In this document: in pieces, positions 3,072 to 17,450 of the stretch
Layout: the number at the start of each line of letters is the position of its first letter
Numbering within the stretch: the stretch's first letter is position 1
DNA from: Candidatus Lokiarchaeum ossiferum
Lineage (GTDB): Archaea > Asgardarchaeota > Lokiarchaeia > Sigyniarchaeales > Promethearchaeaceae
Assembly: GCA_025839675.1 (NCBI GenBank)
Contig: CP104013.1
Span: forward strand, 2,430,001 to 2,462,000
Direction: 5' to 3'
Length of the DNA: 32,000 nucleotides
Notes under the pieces: generated by a model
What the model was told of the DNA's origin: nothing
Databases searched by the model: none
The model's input: only the letters and a program-made list of their open reading frames with translations
Made by a program: the position numbers and the translations under genes

Positions 3072-3638
3072 TCAAAATTGTTCATGATTTGCTTTCATCC
3101 AATCCCGCTTAAATATGGAATATATGTGAGTATCCACATATTCTCCATCAATATACCAATCTTCTTTCCGAGTTGCCTCTAAATGCATTCCTGCTTTAAC
3201 AGCTGATCTCTCAGAGCCGATATTCCAAGCAGAGATCCCTGCAAATATCTTATGAAGATTGACTTCTTCAAAGGCATATTTTAAAATTAATTTAATTGCT
3301 TCGGTAGCATACCCTTGTCCCCAATATTCTTTCTCTCCAATAAGTAAACCATATTCAGCGTTTCGATCATGATATTCAATATCACTCAGACCAATATCCC
3401 CGATTGGCTTTTGATCAACCTTATGCCAGATTTCAAATTTAATTCGGGAATCTGAGGCATTTACATTTTCAATTGCCTTTTGCATTCTTCCAATTGTGGT
3501 GGGTTTGATCATCCGAGATAGACGCCGAATCTCTAGATCATTATACCAATCTACATATATTTCAGCATGTGCAACTTTCAAGGGATGCAATTCTATTCTA
3601 TCCCCATTTATGAACGCAGGATGTGTTTTGCTTGTCAT
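3072..3638 (-). CDS. GNAT family N-acetyltransferase (RimJ/RimL-like)
   Basis: 188 aa. NAEYGLLIGEKEYWGQGYATEAIKLILKYAFEEVNLHKIFAGISAWNIGSERSAVKAGM matches the acetyl-CoA-binding core (Q/R-x-x-G-x-G/A) and overall layout of RimL-type GNATs. Confidence 0.85.
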   Translation of the reverse strand: MTSKTHPAFINGDRIELHPLKVAHAEIYVDWYNDLEIRRLSRMIKPTTIGRMQKAIENVNASDSRIKFEIWHKVDQKPIGDIGLSDIEYHDRNAEYGLLIGEKEYWGQGYATEAIKLILKYAFEEVNLHKIFAGISAWNIGSERSAVKAGMHLEATRKEDWYIDGEYVDTHIYSIFKRDWMKANHEQF

Positions 3639-3667
3639 ATGTATTCTTCAATTAAGGGAACAATAAA

Positions 3668-4492
3668 TTATTTTTGGCTTATTTCACGCAATATGGGTAT
3701 TTCAAGCGTGCAGTTAACACATTCTAATATCCCGATTCGAACGAGGTAATTCTGGATCATTAAGCACATTTCTCTATCAAACGATTCATAAAGCACCCGA
3801 TTGGTCTTATTTTGATCAAGATTATCTTTAAACAAAGCATAGAAGCGATCTAAACCTTTTTCAGCTTCTTCATCCAAATAATCTTGTACCATATGAGGTT
3901 TAAACAAGACTACAAAAAGAAGATCATTTTTTGTGGTGATACTCATCTCGATTTCCAACCCTTTCAAAGTAATGCGTTCAATTTTTCCCAAGTTTTCTTC
4001 TCCAAACATGGACAGAGCTGCAATGAATTGTGCAATTAGTTCGAGATTTATAGATTTATCAATTTGAACATAGTACAACAGATCTCCTCCAGATCGGCAT
4101 ATCCCCAAAGCTAAAATATATTCTTTCAACAATTTTTCTACCAGTTCATTTCGACAAAGACGAGGTAAGCTAATTTCCTTTTCAGATTTTGAGGATTTAG
4201 TCTCAATTTCTAAGACTTGATTAAGAAAATGACCTCTGATCCCATCTATACCAAAAAGATGCTTGTGAAAATATTGATGGGTCTTAGTAATATAAAGGAA
4301 TGGCAAGTAAAACTTACAATCATCTTCAATGCAGAATTCTGCAAGAAAATTTGGATCTTCCAATAAATTTTGATAAACAGCGGAATTTTCAATGGATTTT
4401 TCAGTATAGGAAATGTGATTTTGATTAAACCAATCTTTCAGCTGAAAACAGCGATTACAATCGGATTTAGTTATAATGTAGAAATCTTTCAC
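3668..4492 (-). CDS. Two-domain protein: N-terminal glutaredoxin/NrdH-like fold (CNRC) plus C-terminal roadblock/longin-like domain; putative GTPase partner 1
   Basis: The N-terminus FYIITKSDCNRCFQLKDWF...YLPFLYI...GIDGIRGHF fits the Grx pattern: beta1, CxxC, a cis-Pro strand and a GG-type turn. The C-terminal roughly 160 aa is a clear paralog of the ORF at 16304-16804, with shared blocks RSGGD-LY, FIAALSMFGEEN-GKI, LEIEMSI and YL-R-GIL. It is divergently adjacent to a small GTPase gene. Confidence 0.7.
   Translation of the reverse strand: MKDFYIITKSDCNRCFQLKDWFNQNHISYTEKSIENSAVYQNLLEDPNFLAEFCIEDDCKFYLPFLYITKTHQYFHKHLFGIDGIRGHFLNQVLEIETKSSKSEKEISLPRLCRNELVEKLLKEYILALGICRSGGDLLYYVQIDKSINLELIAQFIAALSMFGEENLGKIERITLKGLEIEMSITTKNDLLFVVLFKPHMVQDYLDEEAEKGLDRFYALFKDNLDQNKTNRVLYESFDREMCLMIQNYLVRIGILECVNCTLEIPILREISQK
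3671..4156 (-). other. Roadblock/longin-like domain, copy 1 (paralog of 16304-16804)
   Basis: The beta-beta-alpha-beta-beta pattern (ILALGICRSGGDLLYYVQ / ELIAQFIAALSMFGEE / IERITLKGLEIEMSITTKNDLLFVVLF) resembles Robl/LC7 (MglB-type) domains. Roughly half of aligned residues are identical to copy 2 by eye. Confidence 0.55.
4208..4492 (-). other. Glutaredoxin-like domain of the 3668-4492 protein (CxxC = C-N-R-C encoded at 4448-4459)
   Basis: The reverse complement of 4448-4459 reads TGT AAT CGC TGT. Position after the first beta-strand and the later LPF (cis-Pro-like) motif fit the thioredoxin fold. Confidence 0.55.
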
Positions 4493-4653
4493 CTTTTTTC
4501 CCCCAAAGACTCAAATACGAAGTAAATAGATAATATCAACCTTAAAAACTAAATTATATTGTTTGTGCATAATATATACACAACCTTTAAATATTTGATT
4601 CGCTCTATTAATTCGTAGTATTCATTTTTTGAAAAACAAAAATGAGATGAGTT

Positions 4654-4836
4654 ATGATGTTACAAAACTGCACTTCTTGTACGCACTTCCATAATTGTTC
4701 TATGGATGGAATTGACGCCCATTCCTACTGCGCCACAGATCCAGAGGCTGTCGGAGTATGTGATCTATGGGATGGAATACGAAAAACAATAAAAGCATGT
4801 TCAGGTTGGGAAAACCCATCAATTTCAATTTCTTGA
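4654..4836 (+). CDS. Possible 60-aa cysteine-rich miniprotein (6 Cys, CxxCx5C start)
   Basis: The ORF reads MMLQNCTSCTHFHNCSMDGIDAHSYCATDPEAVGVCDLWDGIRKTIKACSGWENPSISIS. It is visibly more GC-rich than the flanking AT-rich intergenic DNA. An A/T box (tttaaatattt, 4586-4596) lies about 60 nt upstream. It sits 91 nt upstream of, and co-oriented with, the GTPase gene. I recognise no homology. Confidence 0.4.
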   Translation: MMLQNCTSCTHFHNCSMDGIDAHSYCATDPEAVGVCDLWDGIRKTIKACSGWENPSISIS

Positions 4837-4927
4837 ATTCCTACACATTTTTTTATCAAAAATTTTTTGCATTGTTTCTTAAACTCAATCTATAAACCAA
4901 ATTTTTCATGAGATAACTTAGATTACC

Positions 4928-5923
4928 ATGAAAGATCGGATGCTCCAAATTTTTTTAAACTCCGTAATGAAGACGCTAGACTCCCAACTCAATGCGATAC
5001 TGATCATGAATCGTGACGATAAGGTAGTTCTTCGAGTATTCAACAGTAATCTTCCTAAAAAAAAACAAGAAGAAATTGAATCCCTACTCTCATCCAACTT
5101 GACAAAAATTTCTTCTGAATTTGATGGGGATAAGGTTGGTACTTTTGCATTTGCAACGGAAAGTTATCGACTTGTATTTTGTGAAGCCGGATCAGAAGCA
5201 ATTCTTGTCTTTATTTCTCCTAAAATTACGACTCTGGAATATCTATTTTCCTATATTTACCTATGCGCCGAAAAAGTGGTTCGGATTAACTTGGGTAATA
5301 CTACGAGTTTCGTTCTTCCTCATCTCGAAGATTCTGAAGGTGAACATTCAAGTTCAAGTGAAATACAGAAAATTTCTCTTGATTCTGGAACGTTTATTAT
5401 GAAAGTTATTTTGGGGGGAGATTCGAGGGTAGGAAAAACAACTTTGGTTGAAAAATTCGTTAGTGACACATTTAAAGAAGATTTTAAAAGTACCATAGGA
5501 GTTAATCTAATGAAAAAAACCATATCCTATCGGAATTGGAACATCGATGTCACTTTCTCGGTATTTGACATGGGTGGTCAAGATCAATTTGCTCAAGTGA
5601 GACAATCATATTATCAAGGAGCACGTGCAGGATTCATTGTATTTGATGTTACAAGATACGATACATTCCAAAATATCGAAAAATGGTATAAAGAAATACG
5701 AGAAAACGAGCCCAATATCATGTTGTTGCTAGTTGGTAATAAAGTTGACTTGGTAAAGGAACGGAAGGTTTCGAAGACAGAAGGAAAAATTCTATCGAAA
5801 AAATTAGGTATGAAATACCTCGAAACATCCGCTCTAAACAAAGATTTTGTAGAAGAGGCATTTCGAACCTTAGGATTTTTCTATATTTTAAAAAATCGAG
5901 TGGTAAAAATCATCAATAAATAA
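4928..5923 (+). CDS. Roadblock/LC7-like N-terminal domain fused to a Ras/Rab-family small GTPase
   Basis: All five G motifs are present: G1 GGDSRVGKT, G2 T in KSTIGV, G3 DMGGQ, G4 GNKVD, G5 ETSAL. The N-terminal roughly 125 aa (LNAILIMNRDDKVVLRV...YRLVFCEAGSEAILVFISP) has a roadblock-like pattern. A Ser/Glu-rich linker follows. There is no C-terminal Cys prenylation motif (the protein ends VVKIINK). T(7) at 5938-5944 follows the stop. Confidence 0.85.
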   Translation: MKDRMLQIFLNSVMKTLDSQLNAILIMNRDDKVVLRVFNSNLPKKKQEEIESLLSSNLTKISSEFDGDKVGTFAFATESYRLVFCEAGSEAILVFISPKITTLEYLFSYIYLCAEKVVRINLGNTTSFVLPHLEDSEGEHSSSSEIQKISLDSGTFIMKVILGGDSRVGKTTLVEKFVSDTFKEDFKSTIGVNLMKKTISYRNWNIDVTFSVFDMGGQDQFAQVRQSYYQGARAGFIVFDVTRYDTFQNIEKWYKEIRENEPNIMLLLVGNKVDLVKERKVSKTEGKILSKKLGMKYLETSALNKDFVEEAFRTLGFFYILKNRVVKIINK

Positions 5924-5937
5924 TGTTTCTTTCATTA

Positions 5938-5944
5938 TTTTTTT
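5938..5944 (+). terminator. Oligo-T tract downstream of GTPase gene 1
   Basis: A T(7) run lies 15 nt after the stop at 5923. Archaeal RNA polymerase terminates at oligo-T tracts. Confidence 0.4.
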
Positions 5945-5950
5945 ACGTAA

Positions 5951-6805
5951 TTACTTATCTGCTATTATTTTATTACTTTTACTATTGAAATTTCGAGTTA
6001 GGGGTACATACATTTTATCTTTCCAAATAAGAACTATAGCAATTATAACGTAAAATGAAAGCCTAACAAACTCGAAATTTAGGCCGAAGTTAAATACTTC
6101 ACCACTCACATTGATCATCCAATGAAATAGAATAGCAGATAAGATACTTTGATCCGTTTTTTTATTCAGCCAAGTCATTATAATGGTGGGAAAAATTATA
6201 TACCCATTAAAAATCCAAAATAAGGGAGATCCAAATATTACTTCTGTATTTTGATAAGAATCGGGGATGAAATATAAAGGGAAATGCCAAATTGCCCAAA
6301 ATGTTCCCAATATTAGACTGGATAGAAGGGAATTATATTTTATCTGGATTATCGGCAATGCACATCCTCGCCAACCGGGTTCTTCCATGCTCGCAGCAAG
6401 AAAATTAAAAAGGAGGATAAATAAAACTTGGACAGGCAGAATAATGATTGAACCGAAATTAGAAAAACCTATGGGATTGGTGGAAAATAATAGTTCTATA
6501 ATGCCTACACAAATAGAAATCAAAAAATTGAAGAAGATACTGAAAAATAACCATTGCCATTTCTTTCCCTTGCATTGATAGCACCTTTTCCAGAAAGAGA
6601 GTCTCGTTTCTTTTGATTCTAATTTGAACAAACAAAATATTGCCCCAAATAATGGCCCTAAACCACCAATGCTATGAAAAATGATACCAAAGGGAGTAGA
6701 ATAGCTTACTTGAAAGATTATTAAGATACCCCAGAACAACCATGAAAACCCAAACGTAAAAGCAAAAAAAATGAGATTTGGATGGGATTTTTGGATGAAA
6801 GCCAT
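5951..6805 (-). CDS. CPBP-family (CAAX/Abi) intramembrane glutamic metalloprotease
   Basis: Polytopic membrane protein with the three family motifs in order: EExxxR (MEEPGWRG), FxxxH (FWAIWHF) and HxxxN (LFHWMINV). Confidence 0.8.
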   Translation of the reverse strand: MAFIQKSHPNLIFFAFTFGFSWLFWGILIIFQVSYSTPFGIIFHSIGGLGPLFGAIFCLFKLESKETRLSFWKRCYQCKGKKWQWLFFSIFFNFLISICVGIIELLFSTNPIGFSNFGSIIILPVQVLFILLFNFLAASMEEPGWRGCALPIIQIKYNSLLSSLILGTFWAIWHFPLYFIPDSYQNTEVIFGSPLFWIFNGYIIFPTIIMTWLNKKTDQSILSAILFHWMINVSGEVFNFGLNFEFVRLSFYVIIAIVLIWKDKMYVPLTRNFNSKSNKIIADK

Positions 6806-6924
6806 ATAATTAGTACATACTATAACTTTGTTCTTATTTTAAAATTGCGTCTAAAAAGTAGAATAATTAGAGATGTTAAAGTAAAAAAATGGAAAAAAAA
6901 AATAAGCCACTAACAATCTGTTTT

Positions 6925-8880
6925 CTAGACCAATTGACCACTCACAGCCATAATCCACGCAGAAAGCAGAGTTGCTGTAAATGCCCCTAAATAAATTTTT
7001 CCCGTTTTCCGATAAAAAGCGGTGGTCACAAAGAATATGACTGCGAACTGGGGTAATGTTTGCATGAGGAAAATTCCGAACAATCCAAAGAAAAAGAGAA
7101 GAATTCCCGCGCTTAGACCTGGACCGGTGCCAAACACAAACATTGGAACATATTGAATTAAAAAGACCAAGAATAATCCCGCTTCCATGGCAAAAAGATA
7201 TTTTAACCACCAAACAATCTGGGTTTTGATCTCCGAATCATATTTCTGGAGCTTTAATTGTCCATACATGAATTTTCCACCATTAATCTTGAAGAATAAA
7301 TATACCGGTAATAAATAAACCAAGAAGATTAGAAATCGTGTAGGAGTGAAGGTCTTTAAAATAGGCCACATATACCGCATTTCCACATTCAAGTATTTTT
7401 GAATTATCAAAACAATCGAATACAGATAACCAAAGAAAATGAGCACCATCATAAGGGTTTTAACTAAATATTGCTCTTTTTCTTGAATGGCTTCCACTTT
7501 GAAAATGCCAATATCTTCTTCAGTAAGCCCTTTTTCTTCCTTCGCCTTCAGGAACCATTTTTTAAACAAAAGACTGCAAATCAAGGCATTAATTAACAAC
7601 CAAAAGAGTGAACCATTTCCAGTAAGCAATCTGAAGAAAGGCAATATAACAGTGGTTGCACTTAGTGCAATCATCCCAATGGCAGGTAGGAAAATGAAAC
7701 TGAATCCACCAATCAGAGTATTAATCGTGGCGGATTTCCACCATTCTTTTTTAGTAGTTGGAATTATCTCAGTTGGAGTAGTTTTTAGTCCCACAAATCG
7801 TTCTTTAGTCATTAAAATTGAGGATAAAGGTAAAAGTGAGAGTACAAGAAGTATTACTGCAAACAACATCAAACCTTCTTTAATAAAATAAGTTTGGCGT
7901 CCCGCTTCCAATAAGGCAGCATCTCCATCAGTTTCACCTTGAAGGGCTTGTGTCATCCAAGCAACAGATTCCTGGATACTTTTTTGATTCCAGGTTACTC
8001 CTGGATGGGTGCATTTACATAATGCATATCGTTGTGCTGTCCCATTGGCAAAAACACCATAGGTTTCATCTACACATTCTCCCCGCGGGGTTTCACCTAT
8101 CAGATCTAAATTACTTTCAATCATCGATTTTCCCCGAGCGAGAAAATCAGCGCGGGATTCCATAGGGTTAATAAATAATTCTTCATAAAGTGGCCAGATA
8201 TCAAGATAATTATTCATTCCTAAGACTTCGGTAAGGTCATCAGGCCCACCAGCTTGAATAATCACAGCGCGATGATCTGGATTCAACAATGCCAGTTTTC
8301 GAGCAGTACTTCCCCCCATTGAATGTCCAACAATCCCCATCTGAGTCCCATCAACAAATTCAGCCGATTTTAAATATTGATACATTGCATTGGCACCGAT
8401 AGTATCATCCTCACGTGTGTCAGAAGTTCCAAGAAAATCACCCAGAACATCCGAGCCAATGTCAGAATCCCCATGATTTTGCTGATCCACTGCAATGACA
8501 ACAAATCCCCGTTTCGCTAATTCCATTGCAAGGGGACCTTCCGTGTCTTTATCATTATTCATCCCATGACATAATATTATACCCGGTGCTGGATTATTAT
8601 AGGTTGCAGTCGTAGGACGGTATAATTTCCCTGTGATGGCATTTCCGTATTCATCTGCAACCTGAATATATTCAATATGAGTATTGCCAAAATTGGATTG
8701 GAGGAGCGAGGAAAAGATAGAACTCACAAAAATCACAGTGATCATCACCATTAAAGTGATTTCATCTTTACTCGGTTTCCATTGCTTGATTTTTACAAGC
8801 CAATATTTAAATAAATTGCCCTTATTGCGAGCTAGTTTCCTTTTCTTCTGTTTTTCAATCTGAGGTTCATCATCAACCAT
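6925..8880 (-). CDS. Membrane-anchored alpha/beta-hydrolase fused to a C-terminal polytopic (about 8 TM) membrane domain
   Basis: There is an N-terminal TM (LMVMITVIFVSSIFSSLL). The hydrolase core has an oxyanion-type ILCHGMNND and the nucleophile elbow GHSMGG. About 300 aa of repeated hydrophobic helices follow. The overlapping ORF at 6851-7213 is treated as a shadow. Confidence 0.75.
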   Translation of the reverse strand: MVDDEPQIEKQKKRKLARNKGNLFKYWLVKIKQWKPSKDEITLMVMITVIFVSSIFSSLLQSNFGNTHIEYIQVADEYGNAITGKLYRPTTATYNNPAPGIILCHGMNNDKDTEGPLAMELAKRGFVVIAVDQQNHGDSDIGSDVLGDFLGTSDTREDDTIGANAMYQYLKSAEFVDGTQMGIVGHSMGGSTARKLALLNPDHRAVIIQAGGPDDLTEVLGMNNYLDIWPLYEELFINPMESRADFLARGKSMIESNLDLIGETPRGECVDETYGVFANGTAQRYALCKCTHPGVTWNQKSIQESVAWMTQALQGETDGDAALLEAGRQTYFIKEGLMLFAVILLVLSLLPLSSILMTKERFVGLKTTPTEIIPTTKKEWWKSATINTLIGGFSFIFLPAIGMIALSATTVILPFFRLLTGNGSLFWLLINALICSLLFKKWFLKAKEEKGLTEEDIGIFKVEAIQEKEQYLVKTLMMVLIFFGYLYSIVLIIQKYLNVEMRYMWPILKTFTPTRFLIFLVYLLPVYLFFKINGGKFMYGQLKLQKYDSEIKTQIVWWLKYLFAMEAGLFLVFLIQYVPMFVFGTGPGLSAGILLFFFGLFGIFLMQTLPQFAVIFFVTTAFYRKTGKIYLGAFTATLLSAWIMAVSGQLV

Positions 8881-8994
8881 TTAAATCACCACTTATCCTT
8901 TACTAAAGTCTAGTTCAAGTAAATAAAAATTCTAAAAGTTGATTATATTTTATCGAAGATCTATTTGATTGTTTCTTTGTAGTTGGATGAAAAT

Positions 8995-9005
8995 AAAAAA
9001 AAAAA
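8995..9005 (-). terminator. Oligo-T (T11 on the minus strand) after the ArsR-like gene
   Basis: The A(11) run on the plus strand begins 14 nt downstream of the stop at 9019. It lies between the ArsR-like gene and the hydrolase gene. Confidence 0.5.
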
Positions 9006-9018
9006 CGAACACTAACAA

Positions 9019-9570
9019 TTACAAGGGTTCTTCAAAGTGCTTCTTTAACTTATTCATTATTTGAGGGGTAGTTTTTCTTGTTTTAATTGCCCATATTAAA
9101 ATTGAACATTCAATTCCAAGAATAAGAATAGATATGGGATAAATAATCCAAGGTGTTTGAGGATCCAACATAGTGATTATGAGTATTGTGGAAGAAATAA
9201 TCATGGTGAATAAGATGGTCCCAATGATTATATTCATCCCTTGTACTGCAAGCGATGTTTTATAGGTCTTTTGGCCTTGGTAAGCTTCTTTCAACAAAGG
9301 TTGGTCTTCGGGAGATAAATCTTTTTTGATGGAATCTAAAACATTTAAAGCCCGTTTTCCTAAAGCCGTGATAATATAAAATTGATTCACATCTTTTTCG
9401 ATGAAACCCTGAATATGTTTGAGATGATAGGTGAGTTTGCTGGAACTAATATCAAAAAAGTTTAAAAGATCAGTAAAAGATTTCGGAGATTCCAACAAAA
9501 TTCGAAGGATGTTGCGGCGGATTTCATGAGATATAGCTTGAATAAAGATTTCTTCTGTAGGGAGCGACAT
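9019..9570 (-). CDS. ArsR-family winged-helix transcription regulator with two C-terminal transmembrane helices
   Basis: AISHEIRRNILRILLESPKSFTDLLNFFDISSSKLTYHLKHIQGFIEKD is a typical ArsR/HTH_20 pattern. The C-terminus has two hydrophobic helices, IIIGTILFTMIISSTILIITML and IIYPISILILGIECSILIWAI. Confidence 0.75.
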   Translation of the reverse strand: MSLPTEEIFIQAISHEIRRNILRILLESPKSFTDLLNFFDISSSKLTYHLKHIQGFIEKDVNQFYIITALGKRALNVLDSIKKDLSPEDQPLLKEAYQGQKTYKTSLAVQGMNIIIGTILFTMIISSTILIITMLDPQTPWIIYPISILILGIECSILIWAIKTRKTTPQIMNKLKKHFEEPL

Positions 9571-9704
9571 TTTTCTTCAAGATCCTAAAGCCAACTCATG
9601 ATTATAAGGTTTTTTGACAAAAAAAGTTGTTTCAAGGGGTCAATTTGATTTGACATAGGAGATATCCTAAATGACCAATTAGTAAAATGATGTTTACTAT
9701 CAAT

Positions 9705-10430
9705 TTATGAGGCAATTTTTTGTTTTTTAAGTCGAAAATACAGAAAATTGGGCTTAGAAGTTAATTTTTCATAGGTTTTTAGATCGATCTTCTTTACTTC
9801 AGGGAGTGGAAATGGTTCTTTCAGTTCATCAACATAGAATCCATTTTTTTTGAAAATTTCAAACATTTCCATCAAAGTACGGTGATAATATTGGACCAGA
9901 TAAGGATGCCCAGCAACAGTCCAAGTTTCTTCATATATTTCCTTGGTAAAATAATTCTCTTTTTCACACCATATCCAATCTGCATGGGGATGATGAGTTG
10001 AAAACACAATCGAACCAGATGAACGTAAAACTCGTTTAAGTTCCTTAAAAAGGGGATCCCAATCCTCAATGTAATGAAACACTAAGGATGAAACAATTAA
10101 ATCAACACTGTTAGATGAGATCATTGTCAAGGGTTTGGTAGCATCAGCAACGAATAATTTTGCTTTAGCCCCTACTTTACCTTGCGCAATTTTTAAAAGA
10201 TTGGGACTGATATCAAAGGCAGATACGTGATATTCTTGGTTCACGAGCCATTTGGTTAATCCACCAGAACCACAACCCACTTCCAAAACATCTAAAACAT
10301 TGGCTTCAGGAATTAGAGCGATTACATTTGGTCGATCATACATCTCATTCCATACACCTGTGGAGGTTTTTTCATCGTAAGCTTTTGACATCGCATCATA
10401 GAATGCTTTTGGATCATAACTTGCCATCAA
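9705..10430 (-). CDS. Class I SAM-dependent methyltransferase
   Basis: Motif I is VLEVGCGSGGLT. An acidic residue ends beta2 (SAFDIS). Post-I/II blocks (DLIVSSLVFHYIED, LKRVLRSSGSIVFST) are present. Confidence 0.85.
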   Translation of the reverse strand: MMASYDPKAFYDAMSKAYDEKTSTGVWNEMYDRPNVIALIPEANVLDVLEVGCGSGGLTKWLVNQEYHVSAFDISPNLLKIAQGKVGAKAKLFVADATKPLTMISSNSVDLIVSSLVFHYIEDWDPLFKELKRVLRSSGSIVFSTHHPHADWIWCEKENYFTKEIYEETWTVAGHPYLVQYYHRTLMEMFEIFKKNGFYVDELKEPFPLPEVKKIDLKTYEKLTSKPNFLYFRLKKQKIAS

Positions 10431-10503
10431 GATTAATTTTTTTTAGCATCCAATAAGTTTTGAGTAAGAAAAAAGTAAATTGAAAAAGAATGAAGTTTAG
10501 ATA

Positions 10504-10947
10504 TTATTTCTTTGTTTGAATTCGGAGAAGAATTGAATTCCAAAATGCATTCGTGAATTCAGGATCACTCAATTCTACTTTCCCAATTTTAACACGTGCT
10601 ATTTTAGGGAGAATTCCTTTTTGTGACAATTGAAGCTGCCTAATTGGTATTTCTTGACTATCCAATTTCATAGAGAGAGCCTCAAAGGGACATAATGCCA
10701 TACATACCCCACAAAAGACACATTTTGATTGATCTGGCATGATGGGCATCCGCGCAACTAAAGGCACTTTCATTCCTTTGGCAATCACGGGCATCTCCAA
10801 GGCATTTTTAGGACAAGCTTTCACACATTGTTTACAGGTTTTGCATTTATCCAGATGGAGAATTAAATCGGTTTTTCGGGTGAGATATTCCGAAGAAAAG
10901 GTCCGTGTCTTTATTTTTTCAGTAGTAGTAAGGATCGGCCATTTCAT
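10504..10947 (-). CDS. 2x[4Fe-4S] ferredoxin-domain protein, last gene of the hdr/mvhD operon
   Basis: Two CxxCxxCxxxCP motifs are present: CKTCKQCVKACP and CVFCGVCMALCP. Its start ATG overlaps the mvhD stop in an ATGA 4-nt overlap at 10944-10947, which suggests translational coupling. Confidence 0.8.
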   Translation of the reverse strand: MKWPILTTTEKIKTRTFSSEYLTRKTDLILHLDKCKTCKQCVKACPKNALEMPVIAKGMKVPLVARMPIMPDQSKCVFCGVCMALCPFEALSMKLDSQEIPIRQLQLSQKGILPKIARVKIGKVELSDPEFTNAFWNSILLRIQTKK

Positions 10948-11396
10948 GCTTGAATTTCCTCCATGTGATTTAATCGGGCGACTTCTTTTAAGGGATTCGG
11001 CCCGAGTGCTTTTAATTCATGGACATATTCTTTGATCCGTTCAGTAAATTCAGCTCCTTCACTAGCACTAATATGCCAGAGTTGTACTCGTTTCGGATTA
11101 ATACCATATTGTTCAATGAATTTTTGGATCAAGGCGAATCGCCTAACGGTTTTAAAATTTCCTTCAACGTAATGACAATCGCCTAAATGACATGCGCCAA
11201 TAATAACACCATCGGCTCCTTGTTTCAAAGCTTTAAGGGCGTAATCAGGATCCATTCTACCGGAACACATTAGTCGAATGATACGGACGTTTGCGGGACG
11301 TTGCATACGACTTCGTCCAGCTTGATCGCTTCCTGTATATGTGCACCAATTACAGAAGAATCCCACAATGTATGGTTCAAAGTTATCGTTTTCCAT
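10944..11396 (-). CDS. mvhD: MvhD/FlpD-like iron-sulfur subunit (methyl-viologen-reducing hydrogenase delta subunit family)
   Basis: FFCNWCTYTGSDQAG...RLMCSGR...GCHLGDCHY is the family signature. The ORF track starts at a TTG (11405). However, AGGAG at 11406-11410 abuts that codon and sits 9 nt from the ATG at 11396, so I prefer 11396. Confidence 0.8.
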   Translation of the reverse strand: MENDNFEPYIVGFFCNWCTYTGSDQAGRSRMQRPANVRIIRLMCSGRMDPDYALKALKQGADGVIIGACHLGDCHYVEGNFKTVRRFALIQKFIEQYGINPKRVQLWHISASEGAEFTERIKEYVHELKALGPNPLKEVARLNHMEEIQA

Positions 11397-11408
11397 GATG
11401 ACCAACTC

Positions 11409-13394
11409 CTAATTCGCCCCTCCTTCTCCGTGCACTTCCCACGGTTTAAGGGATTCCAATTCACTAAGGACTTGAGTTTTAGTAAAATGATTTTGGTCAA
11501 TGGCACTACTAGGACAGGTGATCATACAGACACCGCACCCTTTACAGCGGAGGGTATCTATCACCGATACATTTTTCTCTTCGTCAAATGAAATTGCATC
11601 AAAAGAACACACCGATAAACATGAACGACACCCGGAACATATTTCAGACCGCACTTCAGCATAGTAGGGTTCAATTTCCACCTCTCCCGCAGCCATGAAA
11701 TTGTCTGCACTGCTCGCAGCAGCTTTTGCTTGAGCGACAGCATCCGGAATATCACGAGGAGCTTGACAAGTACCACCTATGAAAACACCTTGGGAAAGCG
11801 AATCAACGGGGAATAATTTAGGATGGGCTTCCATAAACATCCCATCATCGGTTAATTGGACTCCAAACTTACGGCCCACATCACTGGCATCTTTCCGGGC
11901 TTCAATGGCTGTGGATAAAATAAGCATATCGACTTCGATTTCAAATTTTTCTCCCAAGAGAGTTTCACTACCCTCCAAGATCAAACTTCCATCTACTTTT
12001 TCAAACACGGATCCGATTCTTCCTCGAACAAAGTTAATGCCGTATTCACGAGCAGCAATTTCATAAAACTCTTCATATCCTTTCCCAAAAGCTCGGATAT
12101 CCATATAAAAAATGTAAACTTGGGAATCAGGATATTTTTCTTTATATTGACGGGCTTGTTTCATAGCATACATACAACATACTCGACTGCAATATTTGTG
12201 ACACCCCTCATGAAAATCACGCGAACCAACACATTGTAAGAATCCCACACTTTTTGGGGTCTGGTGATCTGAAGGTTTGATAACTTTCCCGAGAGTAGGC
12301 CCAGTGCTACTAAGGATCCGTTCAAATTCGATGGCAGTCAGAACATTTTTATATTTCTTGTAACCTAACCGCGCAATTCCACTGGGATCAAAAATATCAT
12401 TCCCGGTAGTTAAAATAATGGAACCAACTGTGAGATCGATTAATTCATCTTTTCGACTTAAATCAATAGCCCCAACTTCACAAGCTTGAACACAAAGCCC
12501 GCATTCAATACAGTTTTGGGAATCAATCGTGTATTGTTCTGGGACTGCCTGAGGAAATGGAATATACGCCGCGGCCCTATGACCCAAATTGAGATCAAAT
12601 TCATTAGGAATTGTGAGAGGACATGCTTGAGCACAAGCTCCGCAGCCCGTACAAATATTGCCATCAATTTTCGACGCTTTTCTTCTCACAGTTACTTTAA
12701 AATTGCCCACATTTAGATCCACGTCTTCAACTTCAGAATACGTTAGTAAATTGATATTTGGATGGCGACCAACTTCGACCATTTTTGGAGTAATAATACA
12801 CGCAGAACAATCCATGGTTGGAAATGTTTTATCCAGTTGGGCCATATGTCCTCCAATAGTGGGACTCCGCTCAACGAGATGTACTTTGTATTTATTGGTT
12901 AAATCTAAAGCTGCAAACATGCCCGAAATGCCTCCTCCCACAACCAAAGCTTCTTGAACCACAGGAAATTTTTGGCGTTCAAGGGGTTTGTTATGGGAGA
13001 CTTTTGCAATCGCCATTTTTAAATGATCCTTGGCGATGTCTAAAGCACCTGGATGATCATGCATATTTACCCAAGAAGCATGTTCACGAATATTCGCTTG
13101 TTCAAAGAAAAACTCATTGAATCCGTTTTTTTTCATCACGGTTCGATAAGTATCTTCATGCATTAAAGGACTACAAGCAGCCACAACCACCCTATTTACT
13201 TTTCCAGAGTTTAAATCATCGGCAATCATTTCTTGGCCGGCTGTACTGCACATAAATTTGTATTCTTTCACGAGAGATACATTTGCAAGTTGCGAAGCAT
13301 ATTCACATAGCGCATCAATATCCACGACATCGGAAATATTTTTTCCACAATGACACACATAAACTCCCACTTTGACATCATCTGAGTTGGACAA
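11409..13394 (-). CDS. hdrA: Heterodisulfide reductase subunit A (FAD plus multiple Fe-S clusters)
   Basis: 661 aa. It has an N-terminal Cys cluster (VCHCGKNIS), a dinucleotide fold (VVGGGISGMFAALDL), and four ferredoxin-type motifs (CTGCGACAQACP, CIECGLCVQACE, CSGCRSCLSVCS, CKGCGVCMITCP). It starts at TTG, preceded by GGAGGT 8 nt upstream inside the end of hdrB. Confidence 0.9.
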   Translation of the reverse strand: MSNSDDVKVGVYVCHCGKNISDVVDIDALCEYASQLANVSLVKEYKFMCSTAGQEMIADDLNSGKVNRVVVAACSPLMHEDTYRTVMKKNGFNEFFFEQANIREHASWVNMHDHPGALDIAKDHLKMAIAKVSHNKPLERQKFPVVQEALVVGGGISGMFAALDLTNKYKVHLVERSPTIGGHMAQLDKTFPTMDCSACIITPKMVEVGRHPNINLLTYSEVEDVDLNVGNFKVTVRRKASKIDGNICTGCGACAQACPLTIPNEFDLNLGHRAAAYIPFPQAVPEQYTIDSQNCIECGLCVQACEVGAIDLSRKDELIDLTVGSIILTTGNDIFDPSGIARLGYKKYKNVLTAIEFERILSSTGPTLGKVIKPSDHQTPKSVGFLQCVGSRDFHEGCHKYCSRVCCMYAMKQARQYKEKYPDSQVYIFYMDIRAFGKGYEEFYEIAAREYGINFVRGRIGSVFEKVDGSLILEGSETLLGEKFEIEVDMLILSTAIEARKDASDVGRKFGVQLTDDGMFMEAHPKLFPVDSLSQGVFIGGTCQAPRDIPDAVAQAKAAASSADNFMAAGEVEIEPYYAEVRSEICSGCRSCLSVCSFDAISFDEEKNVSVIDTLRCKGCGVCMITCPSSAIDQNHFTKTQVLSELESLKPWEVHGEGGAN

Positions 13395-13396
13395 AT

Positions 13397-14377
13397 TTAA
13401 TTACCTCCTTCAGTCAAGGGCATATTCTTGACTTTTTCTAATATTGGGTCTTGTGATGTGAAGGGTGAAATACCTTTCATGTCCGCAGGTTTTATCATCC
13501 CTAAACGTTCTGGTTCAATTCCCATGGCTAAACCAAGAAGTTGAGTAATATAGATTACAGGAATTTGGAATGGTACTTCTCCTTCATCCATTAAATTCGC
13601 TACTTCCAATTGTCCTAAATCATACTGCAATTGGCAAAATGGACAACATACCACAATGCAATCTGCCCCTGCCTTTCGAATTTCCCGTAATTTTTCCAAA
13701 GTTAAGTGGGAACTCACGGATTTATTGGCTGTCCGCACAGCTCCACCTGCCCCACAACACATCATCTTCTTACGATAAATGATGGAAGTAGCTCCAGTTG
13801 CTTCAACAATTTCATCAAAGAATGTGGGATCATCAGGATCTTGCCCAAAAACTTGAATTGCGGCGGGTTTTAAAATGTGACAGCCATAATGGACCGCAAC
13901 ATTCAGATTAAGCTTACGTTTTACCAAGGATTTGATTTTTTCAACACCGATATCATAATATAGGACATCCATGATGTGGCGAACTTTTGAAGTTCCGGTA
14001 TAAGTGCGACCCACAGATGATAGCACTTCATTAACGCGTCCTTTAAGTTCTTCATTATGCTTAAGTTGATGATCTACCTCATTTAAAGTTCCATTGCATC
14101 CATTACAAAGGGTGAGGAGATCATTATGATTTTGTTCAGCAATGTTAATATTCCGAGCCCCCACGGTGAGCCACATAGCTTTATCCACAGACCGAAAAAC
14201 GCCTGGAGCAGGGCAACAACTCGCACCTTCCATTTCATCTACTTTAATATTCAACTCATCAAACAAGGTGCGTGATGCGCGTTCAATCATAGGATACCTA
14301 TTAGGAATCACACAGCCCAAAAAGAGGGAATAATTCAATTCCTTTGAAGATTTATCTGATATTTTTTCACTTTCCAT
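13397..14377 (-). CDS. hdrB: Heterodisulfide reductase subunit B (two CCG domains)
   Basis: Two cysteine-rich CCG-type motifs are present: CCPAPG with CNGCNG, and CCGAGG with CCPFC. AAGGTGA lies 7 nt upstream of the ATG, directly after the hdrC stop. Confidence 0.9.
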   Translation of the reverse strand: MESEKISDKSSKELNYSLFLGCVIPNRYPMIERASRTLFDELNIKVDEMEGASCCPAPGVFRSVDKAMWLTVGARNINIAEQNHNDLLTLCNGCNGTLNEVDHQLKHNEELKGRVNEVLSSVGRTYTGTSKVRHIMDVLYYDIGVEKIKSLVKRKLNLNVAVHYGCHILKPAAIQVFGQDPDDPTFFDEIVEATGATSIIYRKKMMCCGAGGAVRTANKSVSSHLTLEKLREIRKAGADCIVVCCPFCQLQYDLGQLEVANLMDEGEVPFQIPVIYITQLLGLAMGIEPERLGMIKPADMKGISPFTSQDPILEKVKNMPLTEGGN

Positions 14378-14389
14378 TTTTAGGTCACC

Positions 14390-14920
14390 TTAAAGTTGAT
14401 AGGGAATCCTGCCGTTAAACTTGATTTTGTTGATTAGAGTATAGAGCTCATCCATTGCTTCTGGATAACTATGGACTGTTGGAGGTAGGGGGGGAAGATC
14501 CATTTTGATACGTAATTTGGCCCAAGTAGACAGTTCACCACCCAATGGTACAGCGTGACCATGCTGCACCAAATTTTTAATCACACCTTTCAATGGATCG
14601 GGAATATGACCTTCACGAACAGCCATATTGCGCAATTTTAGAATGATTTCGGTCACTGGAATCGTTCGTGGACAGCGTTCATAGCAATTAAAGCAGGTTG
14701 AACAAAGCCAAATATCATTACTTGACAGAACTGATTCTAAGCCAACGAGCGCTTGCCGCATAATTTTTCGTGTTTTCATAGCGGTCCAGTTACCTGAAGG
14801 GCAACCTGCAGAACACTCCCCACACTGGATGCATGCCCGAATTTTACTATGGGATTCTTCAATGGATAATTCTGTGAGAATATCAGGATTAAATTGTATT
14901 AAATTTTTATTTCGGCTCAT
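14390..14920 (-). CDS. hdrC: Heterodisulfide reductase subunit C (2x[4Fe-4S])
   Basis: CIQCGECSAGCP and CSTCFNCYERCP are present. The track ORF extends to a GTG at 14944. The ATG at 14920 (MSRNKNL...) follows a purine-rich GAAGGGAAGGAA and is preferred. Confidence 0.85.
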   Translation of the reverse strand: MSRNKNLIQFNPDILTELSIEESHSKIRACIQCGECSAGCPSGNWTAMKTRKIMRQALVGLESVLSSNDIWLCSTCFNCYERCPRTIPVTEIILKLRNMAVREGHIPDPLKGVIKNLVQHGHAVPLGGELSTWAKLRIKMDLPPLPPTVHSYPEAMDELYTLINKIKFNGRIPYQL

Positions 14921-14980
14921 TTCCTTCCCTTCATTATTAAACACCTTCGACGTAGGAAAGTTAGGGAAAACTTCAAATTC

Positions 14981-15051
14981 AAGTCACCCATTTTCACACG
15001 TGAAAACTGATAATTTGCTTTGGATGAACACCTTCTTAAATAAGTCACCCA
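14981..15051. promoter_or_regulatory. hdr leader/upstream element: exact 10-mer AAGTCACCCA twice (14981-14990, 15042-15051) flanking an inverted repeat TTTTCAC-ac-GTGAAAA (14991-15006, CACGTG core)
   Basis: Read directly from the sequence. In hdr orientation the decamer reads TGGGTGACTT and contains an SD-like GGTGA. Confidence 0.4.
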
Positions 15052-15255
15052 ACTGACAATATTATCACTAAACTTAGTATTTACAACTTAAGTTTATTGT
15101 TATTAGATCATTAAATAAGAATTGATTAATAAAATTTGTTCTGCACATTAATAAATACTCCAAACAATAGTAGGATTTGTAGGTAAAAAAAAAGACAAAT
15201 TGATCCAAAATTCCACTAATTCAGAACATTTATCAATTCTTTTTGAATTAATTAG

Positions 15256-15268
15256 ATATATAAAAAAA
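15256..15268 (+). promoter_or_regulatory. A/T-rich TATA-like box upstream of GTPase gene 2
   Basis: atatataaaaaaa lies about 60 nt upstream of the ATG at 15328. This is the typical composition of an archaeal TATA box. Confidence 0.4.
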
Positions 15269-15306
15269 TACTTTAGGTTGAGTTATCGTAGATGATACCT
15301 AAAGTA
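15269..15306. promoter_or_regulatory. Perfect 10-bp inverted repeat TACTTTAGGT-N18-ACCTAAAGTA abutting the TATA-like box
   Basis: The arms are 15269-15278 and 15297-15306 and are exact reverse complements. The element lies between the A/T box and the start codon of the GcvH-like GTPase gene. Confidence 0.45.
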
Positions 15307-15327
15307 TAATTTTTGAGATGCGAAATT

Positions 15328-16281
15328 ATGGTCACAATTGCAGATGGACGGTTTAGTCTACCGGATAATCTTCTATATACGAAAAATCAACATGTATATT
15401 TGAATAATGATAAAAAAACACTCGGATTAGATGAGATTGGTTATGCCTTCTTGCACAATCCAAATGAATTGAAAATTTTAGTTGAGGATGAAGTGAAAAT
15501 AGGGATTCCTTTCGCAGCAATTACCACAGATTCAGGAATGACAACATTGAATTCTCCATGCTCAGGAAAAATTAAGCAATTAAATCCTAACGCACTTGCC
15601 TCAATGAAAGATCATACCTATGAAACAGGATTTATCATTGAATTGGAAGAGATCACCGAAGTCCAACCAAATTTGGTAACGGGGTCTGAATTGCAAGAAT
15701 GGGGAAATAATGAAGTCAAAACTTTAGTCCGAAACAATTATTCCTTCAAGATCATTGAAATTGGCGATTCGGCAGTAGGAAAAACCGCAATAAAAGTGCG
15801 TTTTACTGATAACTATTTTAAAAAGGATCTAAAAACAACCTTAGGAGTGGATTTTGGTTCCAAAGAAATCAAGGGAGAGTATATTAGCAGCGATATTTTG
15901 TTCTCGGGCACTTATCGTTTCACGGCCAAAATGAATGTTTGGGATGCAGCCGGACAGGCCATGTATGACAAAATTCGAGGTATGTACTATCGAGATGCAA
16001 AGGGTGCACTTATGTGTTATGATGTACACAATCATTTATCCTTTGAACATTTAGAGAAGTGGCGAGAAGAGCTAGAAGAGAGTTTGGGAAAAGTACCTGT
16101 CCTTCTCGTTGGAAATAAGATTGATCTGGAACGAAAGGTCACCCGTCAAGAAGGTTTAGCTTATGCGATGAAGCATAATTACCTTTTTGTTGAGTGTTCT
16201 GCCAAAACAGGTGAAGGTGTTGATGACATGTTTAAACAGCTCGCCGTAGAGATATTCAAGCGGGAAGAAAAATTAGAGTAA
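15328..16281 (+). CDS. GcvH-like (glycine-cleavage H fold, no lipoyl lysine) N-terminal domain fused to a Rab-like small GTPase
   Basis: GTPase motifs: G1 GDSAVGKT, G2 TTLGVDF, G3 WDAAGQ, G4 GNKID, G5 CSAKTG. The N-terminal roughly 125 aa aligns by eye to GcvH: LLYTKNQHVY versus YSKEHEW, SPCSGKIKQLNPNAL versus APVSGEIVAVNDAL, and ETGFIIELE versus GGWIFKIK. The track start (TTG at 15313) is probably an extension, and the ATG at 15328 is preferred. There is no C-terminal Cys. Confidence 0.85.
   Translation: MVTIADGRFSLPDNLLYTKNQHVYLNNDKKTLGLDEIGYAFLHNPNELKILVEDEVKIGIPFAAITTDSGMTTLNSPCSGKIKQLNPNALASMKDHTYETGFIIELEEITEVQPNLVTGSELQEWGNNEVKTLVRNNYSFKIIEIGDSAVGKTAIKVRFTDNYFKKDLKTTLGVDFGSKEIKGEYISSDILFSGTYRFTAKMNVWDAAGQAMYDKIRGMYYRDAKGALMCYDVHNHLSFEHLEKWREELEESLGKVPVLLVGNKIDLERKVTRQEGLAYAMKHNYLFVECSAKTGEGVDDMFKQLAVEIFKREEKLE
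15346..15696 (+). other. GcvH-like hybrid-barrel domain; the position equivalent to the lipoyl lysine is Ser (codon 15532-15534)
   Basis: Counting 8 residues upstream of the conserved P in P-x-S-G gives ITTDSGMTTLNSP against E. coli AESVKAASDIYAP. This places D-S-G where V-K-A lies. Confidence 0.55.
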
Positions 16282-16303
16282 TCGGAGAAATAGGTGAAAA
16301 ATT

Positions 16304-16804
16304 GTGGTGAACGAGCTAATTTTTGAGCGATTTAAATCGAATAATTTAACCGACAGTCAGTGCCAGCTTGTTCAAAAAATTTTAAAGCACTATATTTTAG
16401 GAATTTTCATTTCTCGTTCTGGGGGGGATATTCTATATGATTTTCAGCTTGATGAAAGCATCAAGATTGATCTTATCTCCCACTTTATCGCAGCTCTTTC
16501 TATGTTCGGGGAAGAAAATGTAGGAAAAATCAAACGAATTTTCATTGAAGGACTAGATATTGAGATGAGTATTGTTCAGAAACACGATCTGGTAAGTGTT
16601 ACTTTTTTCCGTCCCAATATGGTCAAGGATTACCTAGAAGCGGAATCAAGTAAAGGATTAGATCTGTTTTACAATATGTTCGAAGAATCTATCAAAGCAG
16701 GCAAAAATAATAAAGCCATTTATGAAGGATTTGACGATCCTATGTGCCATTTGATTCAAGAATATTTGCAAAGATTAGGTATTTTAAAGGATAAAGAAAA
16801 ATAA
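16304..16804 (+). CDS. Roadblock/longin-like protein, putative GTPase partner 2 (paralog of the C-terminal domain of 3668-4492)
   Basis: 166 aa. It has a GTG start with AGGTGA (16292-16297) 6 nt upstream, only 22 nt after the GTPase stop, so it is likely co-transcribed. Shared blocks with the 3668-4492 protein are ISRSGGDILY, FIAALSMFGEENVGKI, LDIEMSI, KDYLE, KGLD-FY and QEYLQRLGIL. Confidence 0.7.
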   Translation: MVNELIFERFKSNNLTDSQCQLVQKILKHYILGIFISRSGGDILYDFQLDESIKIDLISHFIAALSMFGEENVGKIKRIFIEGLDIEMSIVQKHDLVSVTFFRPNMVKDYLEAESSKGLDLFYNMFEESIKAGKNNKAIYEGFDDPMCHLIQEYLQRLGILKDKEK

Positions 16805-16815: not shown

Positions 16816-17019
16816 GCTAACCATTAGAACCATTGCTCTTTTATAATTGGTTTCAGGGGGAAGCTGAATATATTTGGAAAAATTTAGCGTGTTTGCATGT
16901 ATGAAATAAATTTGAATTGATCAGCTTTTTGCTCAAATTTGTGGTGTTTAACATGTTCGTCTTGATCATGACACAACAGACCAAAACACTTATTAATTGA
17001 AGATCTGTAATTGGATTAC

Positions 17020-17373
17020 ATGATTAAAACAACCTATCGATTTAGTAATAGAACAAAAAAACGTAAATTTTCAGTATGGAGAAGTATATGTGCTCTTGGA
17101 ATTTTGATAGGTTTAGGATTGGTTCTATTGTATGTGTCTAAATGGACTAATTTTAGTATCACTCTTGATGAGGAAAAATATGAACCTTATCGCACCGAAG
17201 GAGTGAATAATGAAACGATTGAAGAATTGAAAGAAAATTATGAAAACTATTGGAGACCAATCATCAATATTACTTTACCAGTAGGTATCGTCTTATTTTT
17301 CGGGTGTTTCTTTGTTGGTAATTATGTTCTTGTTAAAATTTTTGTTTCTGACAAATCAAAATCTTTTGCCTAA
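17020..17373 (+). CDS. Small membrane protein (two predicted TM helices), unknown function
   Basis: Hydrophobic segments are ICALGILIGLGLVLLYV and ITLPVGIVLFFGCFFVGNYVLVKIF. The track start at 17011 is TTG, and the first ATG is at 17020. Confidence 0.45.
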   Translation: MIKTTYRFSNRTKKRKFSVWRSICALGILIGLGLVLLYVSKWTNFSITLDEEKYEPYRTEGVNNETIEELKENYENYWRPIINITLPVGIVLFFGCFFVGNYVLVKIFVSDKSKSFA

Positions 17374-17450
17374 GATATTTTTTCAATTAAAATTTTGAAT
17401 TTTCATGTAAAAATTTGTAATTTTTTTCAAAATCTTTGTAAAAACATAAT

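Follow-up and report, generated by a model that had tools for sequence, protein, structure and literature searches.

A GcvH-like Rab-type GTPase and a longin/roadblock-type partner are encoded beside heterodisulfide reductase genes in Lokiarchaeia

Introduction

In the MglA–MglB, Rag–Ragulator and Rab–Mon1/Ccz1 systems, a GTPase of the Ras superfamily is paired with a partner of the longin/roadblock fold. We describe a pair of the same kind, here encoded by adjacent genes, in a 32,000-nucleotide stretch of the genome of Candidatus Lokiarchaeum ossiferum (GenBank assembly GCA_025839675.1, contig CP104013.1, positions 2,430,001 to 2,462,000 of the forward strand; hereafter the window, with positions counted from its first letter). 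This pair, GTPase 2 and partner 2, which we call module 2, differs from MglA and Rag in its Rab-like G domain, and from all three systems in the GcvH-like domain carried by the GTPase and in its linkage to hdr genes, which encode a heterodisulfide reductase (Hdr). Its partner differs from MglB, Ragulator and Mon1–Ccz1 in belonging to a separate, Asgard-restricted family, which has an N-terminal helix, two C-terminal helices and no direct Pfam match.

The sHdr–LbpA system of sulfur oxidisers is alike in another respect: there too, a homolog of GcvH is linked by its genes to an Hdr complex. GcvH-like proteins work with Hdr-like complexes in that system; in LbpA the lipoyl-lysine is strictly conserved and two cysteines are conserved as well, and the system is recognized by an hdrC1B1A-hyp-hdrC2B2 operon and a dedicated lipoate ligase (PMC6067878). 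No lipoate ligase gene was found in the window. The likeness extends to sHdr–LbpA–DsrE–TusA loci, as DsrE/DsrH-like genes occur at the corresponding locus of Promethearchaeum syntrophicum MK-D1 and TusA in a second L. ossiferum hdr locus.

Asgard genomes contain dozens of genes for Rab-, Rag- and Arf-like GTPases and for longin and roadblock proteins, which are central to ideas on the origin of eukaryotic membrane trafficking. To our knowledge, almost none of these GTPases has a known target. Fusions of Asgard GTPases to roadblock or longin domains have been described, as has an operon with LAMTOR1-like, Rab-like and DENN components (PMC10933270; bioRxiv 10.1101/2020.10.19.343400). Module 2 resembles these multidomain small GTPases in that its Lokiarchaeial Rab-like GTPase bears an additional domain and is encoded beside a longin/roadblock-type protein. 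Neither of the two papers mentions GcvH, glutaredoxin or a link between Hdr and GTPases, and we found no prior description of a GcvH/Hdr/GTPase association in Asgard archaea in open-access papers and bioRxiv. A small GTPase with a longin/roadblock partner is thus of a known kind, and the previously unreported elements are the GcvH-like fusion and the conserved Hdr link.

A sequence-only reading of the window had grouped module 2 with a second GTPase–partner pair, module 1, as instances of one system with thiol- or redox-flavoured accessory domains. The gene content it described was confirmed by an open reading frame map and Pfam scans, and the two Ras/Rab-like GTPases that it placed at 4928–5923 and 15328–16281 match Pfam Ras at E values of 2.3e-45 and 1.8e-46, respectively. 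The association of Hdr genes, GTPase and longin/roadblock protein is real and apparently undescribed; thiol gating is a hypothesis at most. We estimate a probability of about 0.5 that the real functional unit is module 2, a Lokiarchaeia-specific trio of GcvH-GTPase, partner and hdr genes in which the GcvH-like domain serves as a docking adaptor for Hdr.

An hdr operon adjoins the GcvH-GTPase in at least eight lineages

GTPase 2 (NEF87_002033; 15328–16281, plus strand, start ATG at 15328) is followed on the same strand by partner 2 (NEF87_002034; 16304–16804; 166 amino acids), whose start lies 22 nt past the GTPase 2 stop, with ribosome-binding-like motifs (GGAG/GGTGA) upstream. Divergent from the pair, on the minus strand, is the five-gene operon (10504–14944) that had been taken for a heterodisulfide reductase operon, an identification borne out by Pfam. 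It comprises hdrC (14390–14944; Fer4_17/Fer4_8, with two [4Fe-4S] sites), hdrB (13397–14377; two CCG domains, 4.6e-33), hdrA (11409–13394; 661 amino acids, Fer4 and NAD/FAD-binding domains, a flavo-iron–sulfur protein), mvhD (10944–11405; FlpD, 1.3e-47) and, as fifth gene, a ferredoxin-like gene with two [4Fe-4S] sites, fer4 (10504–10947). This is the domain complement of an HdrABC–MvhD complex; no mvhA/G hydrogenase genes were found in the window.

The divergent spacer between hdrC and GTPase 2 (14945–15327) measures 383 bp rather than the 384 bp first given. Directly upstream of the GTPase 2 ribosome-binding site it holds a 17-nt inverted repeat (15262–15313; 88% complementary, 18-nt loop), the core of which is a perfect 11-bp stem, ATACTTTAGGT/ACCTAAAGTAT. 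The repeat may be an operator or a hairpin of the 5′ untranslated region; an Rfam scan of the window, repeat included, returned no family match.

We sampled 12 loci fetched via the partner family and further loci fetched via the GTPase family. Orthologous hdrCBA-mvhD-fer4 genes adjoin the GcvH-GTPase in 11 of these (the window and ten others), representing at least eight lineages, so that the Hdr connection of module 2 is much stronger than could be seen from the window alone. Three arrangements occur. The hdr genes are divergent from the GcvH-GTPase in the window and in L010, L012 and L017 (Harpocratesius); they are co-directional, with the partner gene after the GTPase, in four Promethearchaeum genomes (L005–L008) and L025; and in L022 and L023, whose GTPases show only 48–50% identity, they are co-directional and the GTPase is followed by a gene for a sugar isomerase (SIS)-like protein. 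Across the Hdr-linked loci identity falls from 76% to 62% for HdrA and from 71% to 48% for the GTPase, and the junction between hdr and GTPase is therefore old. As a synteny control, none of the window's other ~23 genes is conserved in the Hdr-linked loci, nor is anything around partner 1 (module 1) conserved in Promethearchaeum; background synteny at such divergence is thus essentially nil.

The most compact arrangement is that of MK-D1 (L008; NZ_CP042905.2, 640637–657056), where hdrC-hdrB-hdrA-mvhD-fer4-GTPase-partner form a seven-gene array on one strand with gaps of 41, −4, 7, −1, 47 and 11 bp. The fer4–GTPase spacing is likewise operon-like in L023 (52 bp) and L025 (115 bp). The MK-D1 array is flanked (40–1629 and 8475–11766 of the locus) by four divergent DsrE/DsrH-like sulfur-relay genes and, on the other side, by genes for a pyridine-nucleotide disulfide oxidoreductase, the catalytic subunit of ferredoxin-thioredoxin reductase and a flavodiiron protein. 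These flanking genes fit a thiol/sulfur-redox setting and are proof of no mechanism.

A second link between the two gene families lies elsewhere in L. ossiferum itself (L015; CP163304.1, 2523496–2540458, at 1–8963), where 1.6 kb, with an RsmB-like methyltransferase gene in it, separates the gene for a GcvH-GTPase paralog, P0126 (62% identical), from a paralogous hdrB-hdrA-mvhD-Oxidored_q6-FrhB/GltD-like-TusA cluster. No partner gene is present at this locus.

The SIS-like proteins, of ~360–376 amino acids with a weak SIS match, recur beside GcvH-GTPases and may be a third component of the GcvH-GTPase system. They are encoded by paralog pairs in L016 (10141–12406), L019 (3667–5867) and L021 (5963–8172), and by single genes directly downstream of the Hdr-linked GTPase in L022 (5999–7096) and L023 (6042–7139). 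They are absent from the window; a 366-residue reading frame at 1927–3027 was considered as such a neighbour and rejected, having no BLAST similarity to them.

GTPase 2 joins a predicted active switch to a GcvH-derived domain

GTPase 2 consists of a GcvH-like domain (residues 1 to ~125; 15328–15702) and a Rab-like G domain (residues ~141–309; 15748–16254), whose closest solved structures are a Thorarchaeota Rab, Rab11 and Rab2. Its residues at the motifs that define a small GTPase (GxxxxGK[ST], the switch-I Thr, DxxGQ, NKxD and SAK) are invariant from G1 to G5 in 42 aligned homologs (G146, G151, K152, T153, T171, D206, G209, Q210, N263, K264, D266, S291 and A292), which points to an active switch. 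No Cys is invariant in the same alignment. Neither GTPase of the window ends in the prenylation Cys that is a hallmark of eukaryotic Rab and Ras proteins: GTPase 2 ends in REEKLE and GTPase 1 in KIINK.

Taken alone, the N-terminal domain of the window protein is below threshold for GCV_H (16 bits, E 0.01). Its family profile matches 13 solved GcvH structures at E values of 2.8e-7 to 1e-4, and among 30 family members, 27 match PF01597 (best 7e-11) and 29 match NCBIfam GcvH (best 9e-12). In the AlphaFold2 model of GTPase 2 the predicted local distance difference test score (pLDDT) is 86 overall and 90–97 within the GcvH-like domain. Judged by these profiles, the domain is a true GcvH homolog and the homology is solid. 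In a protein database search the GcvH-like domain by itself gave one match; the full-length query retrieved a large GcvH-like plus Rab-like family of 424 clusters at E values under 1e-20, and of the 120 top-listed matches the majority aligned almost from end to end. Such proteins were found in Lokiarchaeia, Helarchaeota, Hodarchaeota and Sigynarchaeota.

The GcvH-like domain had been read as redox-flavoured as well as GcvH-like, and of these two claims it is the homology that stood. The column aligned to the lipoyl-lysine of Mycobacterium tuberculosis GcvH holds Ser69 in GTPase 2; among 106 homologs it is most often Asn (24), Gln (19) or Arg (18), with Lys in only 12 and Ser in 9. The only frequent Cys of the domain, C78, is present in 69 of the 106 and replaced by Val or Ile in the other 37. 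With a variable lysine site, an inconstant cysteine and fusion to a GTPase, the domain differs from LbpA on each count; by its residues it is GcvH-derived, not a conserved lipoyl or thiol carrier.

The partner belongs to a small Asgard branch of the longin/roadblock superfamily

Partner 2 and its module 1 counterpart, partner 1, had been assigned to one paralogous roadblock/longin-like family, and this assignment holds. They are 57% identical over 142 residues (E 2e-58). In Pfam scans of both partners no model matched even at E 10, and a partner-family profile gave chance matches only against Protein Data Bank (PDB) sequences; the fold was recognized from structure prediction. The AlphaFold2 model of partner 1 has a pLDDT of 76 overall and above 85 across most of its C-terminal domain, where a helix (116–125), two strands (126–133 and 138–143), a helix (150–161), three strands (173–176, 179–188 and 191–197) and two helices (207–226 and 232–252) follow one another. 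This model contains the longin/roadblock core, a beta-beta-alpha-beta-beta-beta sandwich with terminal helices. Searched with Foldseek against the PDB, it matched longin structures (zeta-COP, sigma-adaptins, SRX and Mon1–Ccz1) and roadblock structures (MK-D1 Roadblock2/3, LAMTOR2/3 and MglB), in both cases at E values of 3e-4 to 7e-3 and with target-normalized TM scores of 0.4–0.58.

A HMMER search run exhaustively over 1.84 billion cluster representatives recovered only 71 family members, these being representatives at 50% identity; at 90% identity the family counts 68 clusters. Every match with a named source was from Promethearchaeota. Among 59 relatives retrieved by profile, some match Pfam models of the superfamily directly: Fuz_longin_1 (three, 2.7e-8), Longin (two), MAPKK1_Int (five), Robl_LC7 (one) and SRP-alpha_N (one). 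The Pfam link of the window's partners to longin and roadblock models is transitive, by way of these weaker-scoring distant relatives. The partner family is a small Asgard-restricted branch of the longin/roadblock superfamily. One member, P0198 (315 amino acids), apparently has two tandem partner domains.

A neighbour-joining tree separates the Hdr-linked GTPases of Lokiarchaeia (clade A) from a second group (clade B), and partner genes accompany both. The partner gene follows the GcvH-GTPase in the clade A loci of the window, L005–L008, L010, L012, L017 and L025, and adjoins it in the clade B loci L009, L016 and L019; counted without regard to clade, a partner comes after the GcvH-GTPase in L005–L012, L016, L017 and L025. 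The two are also joined in a natural fusion, the cluster representative P0200 (384 amino acids), in which a partner domain (E 3.7e-42) occupies the place of the GcvH-like domain. Its G domain is of the GTPase 2 type (47% identical to GTPase 2 and 30% to GTPase 1) and has the GTPase 2-like interswitch insertion; with the catalytic Gln replaced (DIAGP) and NKxD changed to TKSD, P0200 may be a pseudo-GTPase. Other relatives of the partner family are fused to Ras or RagA-type domains. With the two genes kept side by side in both paralogous GTPase clades and a natural fusion on record, the data support functional coupling of GcvH-GTPase and longin/roadblock partner.

Module 2 as a candidate Hdr-docked switch

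On the observed domain identities, family relationships, conserved neighbourhoods and fusion protein we base a model in which the products of module 2 would bind one another and the Hdr complex. The partner, of ~165 amino acids, would form a dimeric platform on the G domain and set its nucleotide state as a GTPase-activating protein or guanine nucleotide exchange factor, by analogy with the longin/roadblock platforms MglB, Ragulator, Mon1–Ccz1 and TRAPP. The lysine-less GcvH-like domain would be a docking adaptor that carries no cofactor and tethers the switch to the Hdr/MvhD iron–sulfur complex; docking is suggested by the hdr linkage and by the precedent of LbpA with Hdr-like complexes (PMC6067878). 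Through its GTP or GDP state the switch would then either govern how the Hdr complex is assembled, where it is located or how active it is, or signal the redox state of the complex to downstream effectors.

Several findings weigh against this docked-switch model. In L022 and L023, the GTPase is Hdr-linked with no partner gene nearby. Clade B loci (L016, L019 and L021) have the GTPase with one or two partner genes and/or the SIS-like pair and no hdr, and neither hdr nor partner lies near the distant orthologs, those of Helarchaeota included (L013, L014 and L024); the GTPase family thus does not require the hdr link. (L009 falls in clade B, at a locus too short for hdr presence to be judged.) As inversion of the hdr operon in place would leave the genes side by side in any case, the arrangements do not count as fully independent events. 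The window Hdr is of the methanogen type, hdrCBA-mvhD(-fer4), and differs from the sHdr type that uses LbpA. A GcvH-like domain without conserved Lys or Cys makes a direct chemical link to Hdr disulfide chemistry unlikely. Finally, Tran et al. 2024 (PMC10933270) report that GTPase genes of MK-D1 do not, as a rule, share operons with genes for roadblock or longin proteins, a pattern to which the GcvH-GTPase/partner pair and the seven-gene hdr array would be an exception.

Some of these findings would be expected if the neighbourhood were conserved with no physical coupling, the GTPase and partner being an ordinary Asgard signalling pair, kept beside hdr by shared regulation or slow rearrangement and with targets unrelated to Hdr. 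The absence of hdr beside the clade B and Helarchaeota orthologs is then unsurprising, the four divergently transcribed loci rule out co-transcription there, one inversion in place accounts for two of the arrangements, and the recurring SIS-like neighbours point to other connections. Such an uncoupled neighbourhood is a possible explanation, though a distinctly less probable one than docking, as it sits poorly with a junction that persists to 48% GTPase identity where other synteny between genera has decayed, with the operon-like fer4–GTPase spacing in MK-D1 (47 bp), L023 and L025, and with a GcvH-GTPase paralog near a paralogous hdr cluster.

Linkage this tight to an enzyme rich in unusual iron–sulfur clusters, with operon-like order in MK-D1, could also mean that the GTPase–partner pair helps to mature or assemble the iron–sulfur or flavin centres of Hdr/MvhD, in the manner of HypB and HydF, GTPases that insert metal centres; a very weak NCBIfam match falls in the HydF region (E 0.04). 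We consider this highly improbable: the G domain is Rab-like and not of the SIMIBI or TRAFAC maturation type, GTPase 2 has no metal-binding motifs or conserved Cys, Hdr operons elsewhere manage without such a factor, and clade B paralogs exist without hdr.

For the docked switch, the GTPase-linked HdrABC–MvhD is a concrete candidate target. MvhADG–HdrABC is the only hydrogenase encoded in MK-D1, with its thiol/disulfide pair written 'X', and has been proposed to produce H2 in the syntrophy of that organism (Imachi et al.; PMC7015854). The GTPase-linked complex is of the MvhADG–HdrABC type, and we do not equate it with the hydrogenase's own Hdr. A stronger version, which we hold to be rather unlikely, would make the GcvH-GTPase and partner regulatory or stoichiometric subunits of HdrABC–MvhD as an electron-bifurcating/confurcating complex, with the GcvH-like domain a degenerate LbpA-type carrier docked on the Hdr catalytic module and the glutaredoxin-fused partner of module 1 a redox-sensing variant of the platform; if true, a eukaryote-type small-GTPase switch would directly control or read the thiol/disulfide–hydrogen metabolism that underlies Asgard syntrophy. 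Short of that, a physical link would show an ancestral use of eukaryote-type GTPase switches in the regulation of energy metabolism rather than membrane traffic, and a eukaryote-style switch may be wired to core energy metabolism in Lokiarchaeia. The locus supplies a specific, conserved pairing of a GcvH-like Rab GTPase with one longin/roadblock family, which would surprise Asgard specialists, and its best examples belong to two cultured organisms, MK-D1 and L. ossiferum, in which co-purification and GTPase assays are feasible.

Module 1 carries a glutaredoxin-fold paralog of the partner

Module 1 comprises partner 1 (NEF87_002021; 3668–4492, minus strand; 274 amino acids), a mini-gene with six Cys codons (4654–4836, plus strand; 59/60 amino acids) and GTPase 1 (4928–5923, plus strand), which is transcribed divergently from partner 1. 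Partner 1 has a glutaredoxin/thioredoxin-fold domain (residues 1 to ~95; 4208–4492), the longin/roadblock-type domain (residues 113–257; 3722–4156) and a tail with C258 and C261. The N-terminal domain, which had been called glutaredoxin-like with a CxxC motif, falls short of the gathering score of Pfam Glutaredoxin (E 0.049; 14.3 bits against a cut-off of 22.9), and its NCBIfam matches to YruB, NrdH and Spx are all far under their cut-offs; two members of the glutaredoxin-fused subfamily match the Pfam model at 4.6e-5. In the AlphaFold2 model (strand 4–8, helix 13–24, strand 30–33 and onward), C12-x-R-C15 lies at the start of helix 1, and Foldseek gives TM scores of 0.65–0.77 to Grx1, cGrx1 and BC3987. 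The model thus identifies a thioredoxin/glutaredoxin fold with CxxC and cis-Pro, in agreement with the earlier assignment.

Nine orthologs of the glutaredoxin-fused subfamily (the window protein with L001–L004, P0042, P0054, P0190 and P0195; 54–85% identical, four Promethearchaeum genomes included) share eight invariant cysteines and cis-Pro P64. The cysteines are C12 and C15, C54 and C59 (a Cx4C just before P64), C113, C243 and C258-x-x-C261, a layout that would suit a metal (Zn or Fe–S) site, or a dithiol relay within the molecule, better than a simple glutaredoxin. Partner 1 is a paralog of the platform protein to which a glutaredoxin-fold domain with CxxC and a tail with CxxC have been added, and thiol/disulfide or metal sensing is plausible only for this glutaredoxin-fused form.

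The mini-gene, first noted as a 6-Cys reading frame, is a real gene. Its product is 83% identical to that of L018, the close relative that also carries it, with all six Cys kept, and the 5/6/25 distribution of substitutions over codon positions 1/2/3 indicates purifying selection. Its true start is probably the second ATG, at 4657. It has no Pfam or NCBIfam match, and no homolog was seen in any fetched locus beyond L018.

GTPase 1 matches Pfam Ras over residues 159–315 (5402–5872), and its G domain is 33% identical to that of GTPase 2. A metagenome scan for its relatives returned a G domain of 28% identity only. It also has an N-terminal domain of its own, of 150 residues (4928–5377), absent from the sequence-only reading. 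This domain is 86% conserved in L018; it has a weak Pfam MAPKK1_Int match (E 0.12), no PDB match by phmmer and a probability of 0.5% when aligned by hhalign with the partner/longin alignment, and its sequence pattern hints at a roadblock-like fold.

We judged the conservation of module 1 from L018 and Promethearchaeum. The divergent arrangement of partner 1, mini-gene and GTPase 1 recurs only in L018, where the proteins are 85–96% identical and local synteny is complete; for the pairing of partner 1 with GTPase 1, the identity to this relative is 85–91%. The four Promethearchaeum genomes have a full-length ortholog of the glutaredoxin-fused partner (63% identical) between genes for an Lrp/AsnC regulator and a DUF711 protein, with no Ras-family gene within 8 kb. 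GTPase adjacency of the partner family, conserved in clades A and B, is lacking for this paralog in Promethearchaeum. Small GTPases are so numerous in L. ossiferum that a single adjacency confined to one lineage counts for little, and the idea of two modules as instances of one system did not survive: the recurrent neighbour of the partner family is the GcvH-type GTPase. The pairing of partner 1, GTPase 1 and the 6-Cys protein is lineage-specific and may not be cognate; that GTPase 1 belongs to the same system as GTPase 2 is doubtful, and we prefer to view partner 1 as a platform-protein paralog with redox or metal decoration.

The cysteines of module 1 bear on the proposal that thiol/disulfide chemistry directly gates the nucleotide cycle or the partner interaction, through the glutaredoxin-fold CxxC, Cys pairs of the partner and the 6-Cys mini-protein. 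The eight invariant Cys of the glutaredoxin-fused subfamily, with CxRC at the position of the thioredoxin active site, speak for such gating, as do the six of six Cys retained by the mini-gene product and the DsrE/DsrH-like, disulfide oxidoreductase and ferredoxin-thioredoxin reductase genes that flank the MK-D1 array. So does a Cys pair in the partner family at large: a Cys in the helix 1 region and one in the last helix are both present in 34 of 106 sequences and both absent in 61, with 11 discordant, as raw counts uncorrected for phylogeny. The discordant cases and the Hdr-linked partner P0038 (L025), which has neither Cys of the pair, tell against it, as do a GcvH-like domain without Lys or conserved Cys, a GTPase 2 without invariant Cys, a Promethearchaeum glutaredoxin-fused partner without a GTPase neighbour and a mini-gene confined to Lokiarchaeum and one close relative. 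Direct gating is on balance unlikely, and the view that the accessory domains are all thiol- or redox-flavoured is upheld for the glutaredoxin-fused partner and for neither the GcvH-like domain nor P0038.

Neighbouring genes in the window

Convergent with GTPase 1 is a gene for an Rce1-like membrane protein of the CPBP/CAAX-protease family (5951–6805, minus strand), absent from the otherwise syntenic L018 and probably a recent insertion. We considered it as a sign that GTPase 1 undergoes CAAX processing and rejected this, since GTPase 1 has no C-terminal Cys and the gene is lacking in L018.

On the same strand after partner 2 (17011–18170) lie genes for a small predicted membrane protein (120 amino acids) and a hemerythrin-domain protein (239 amino acids), neither conserved in the other loci. 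Further downstream of module 2 is a sulfate activation and assimilation cluster (19691–24242) with a CysD-like gene of the PAPS_reduct family, a CysN/CysC fusion (an EF-Tu-type GTPase joined to an APS kinase), a second PAPS-reductase-family gene and a TauE/SafE sulfite exporter; this cluster is not kept beside the module in other genera.

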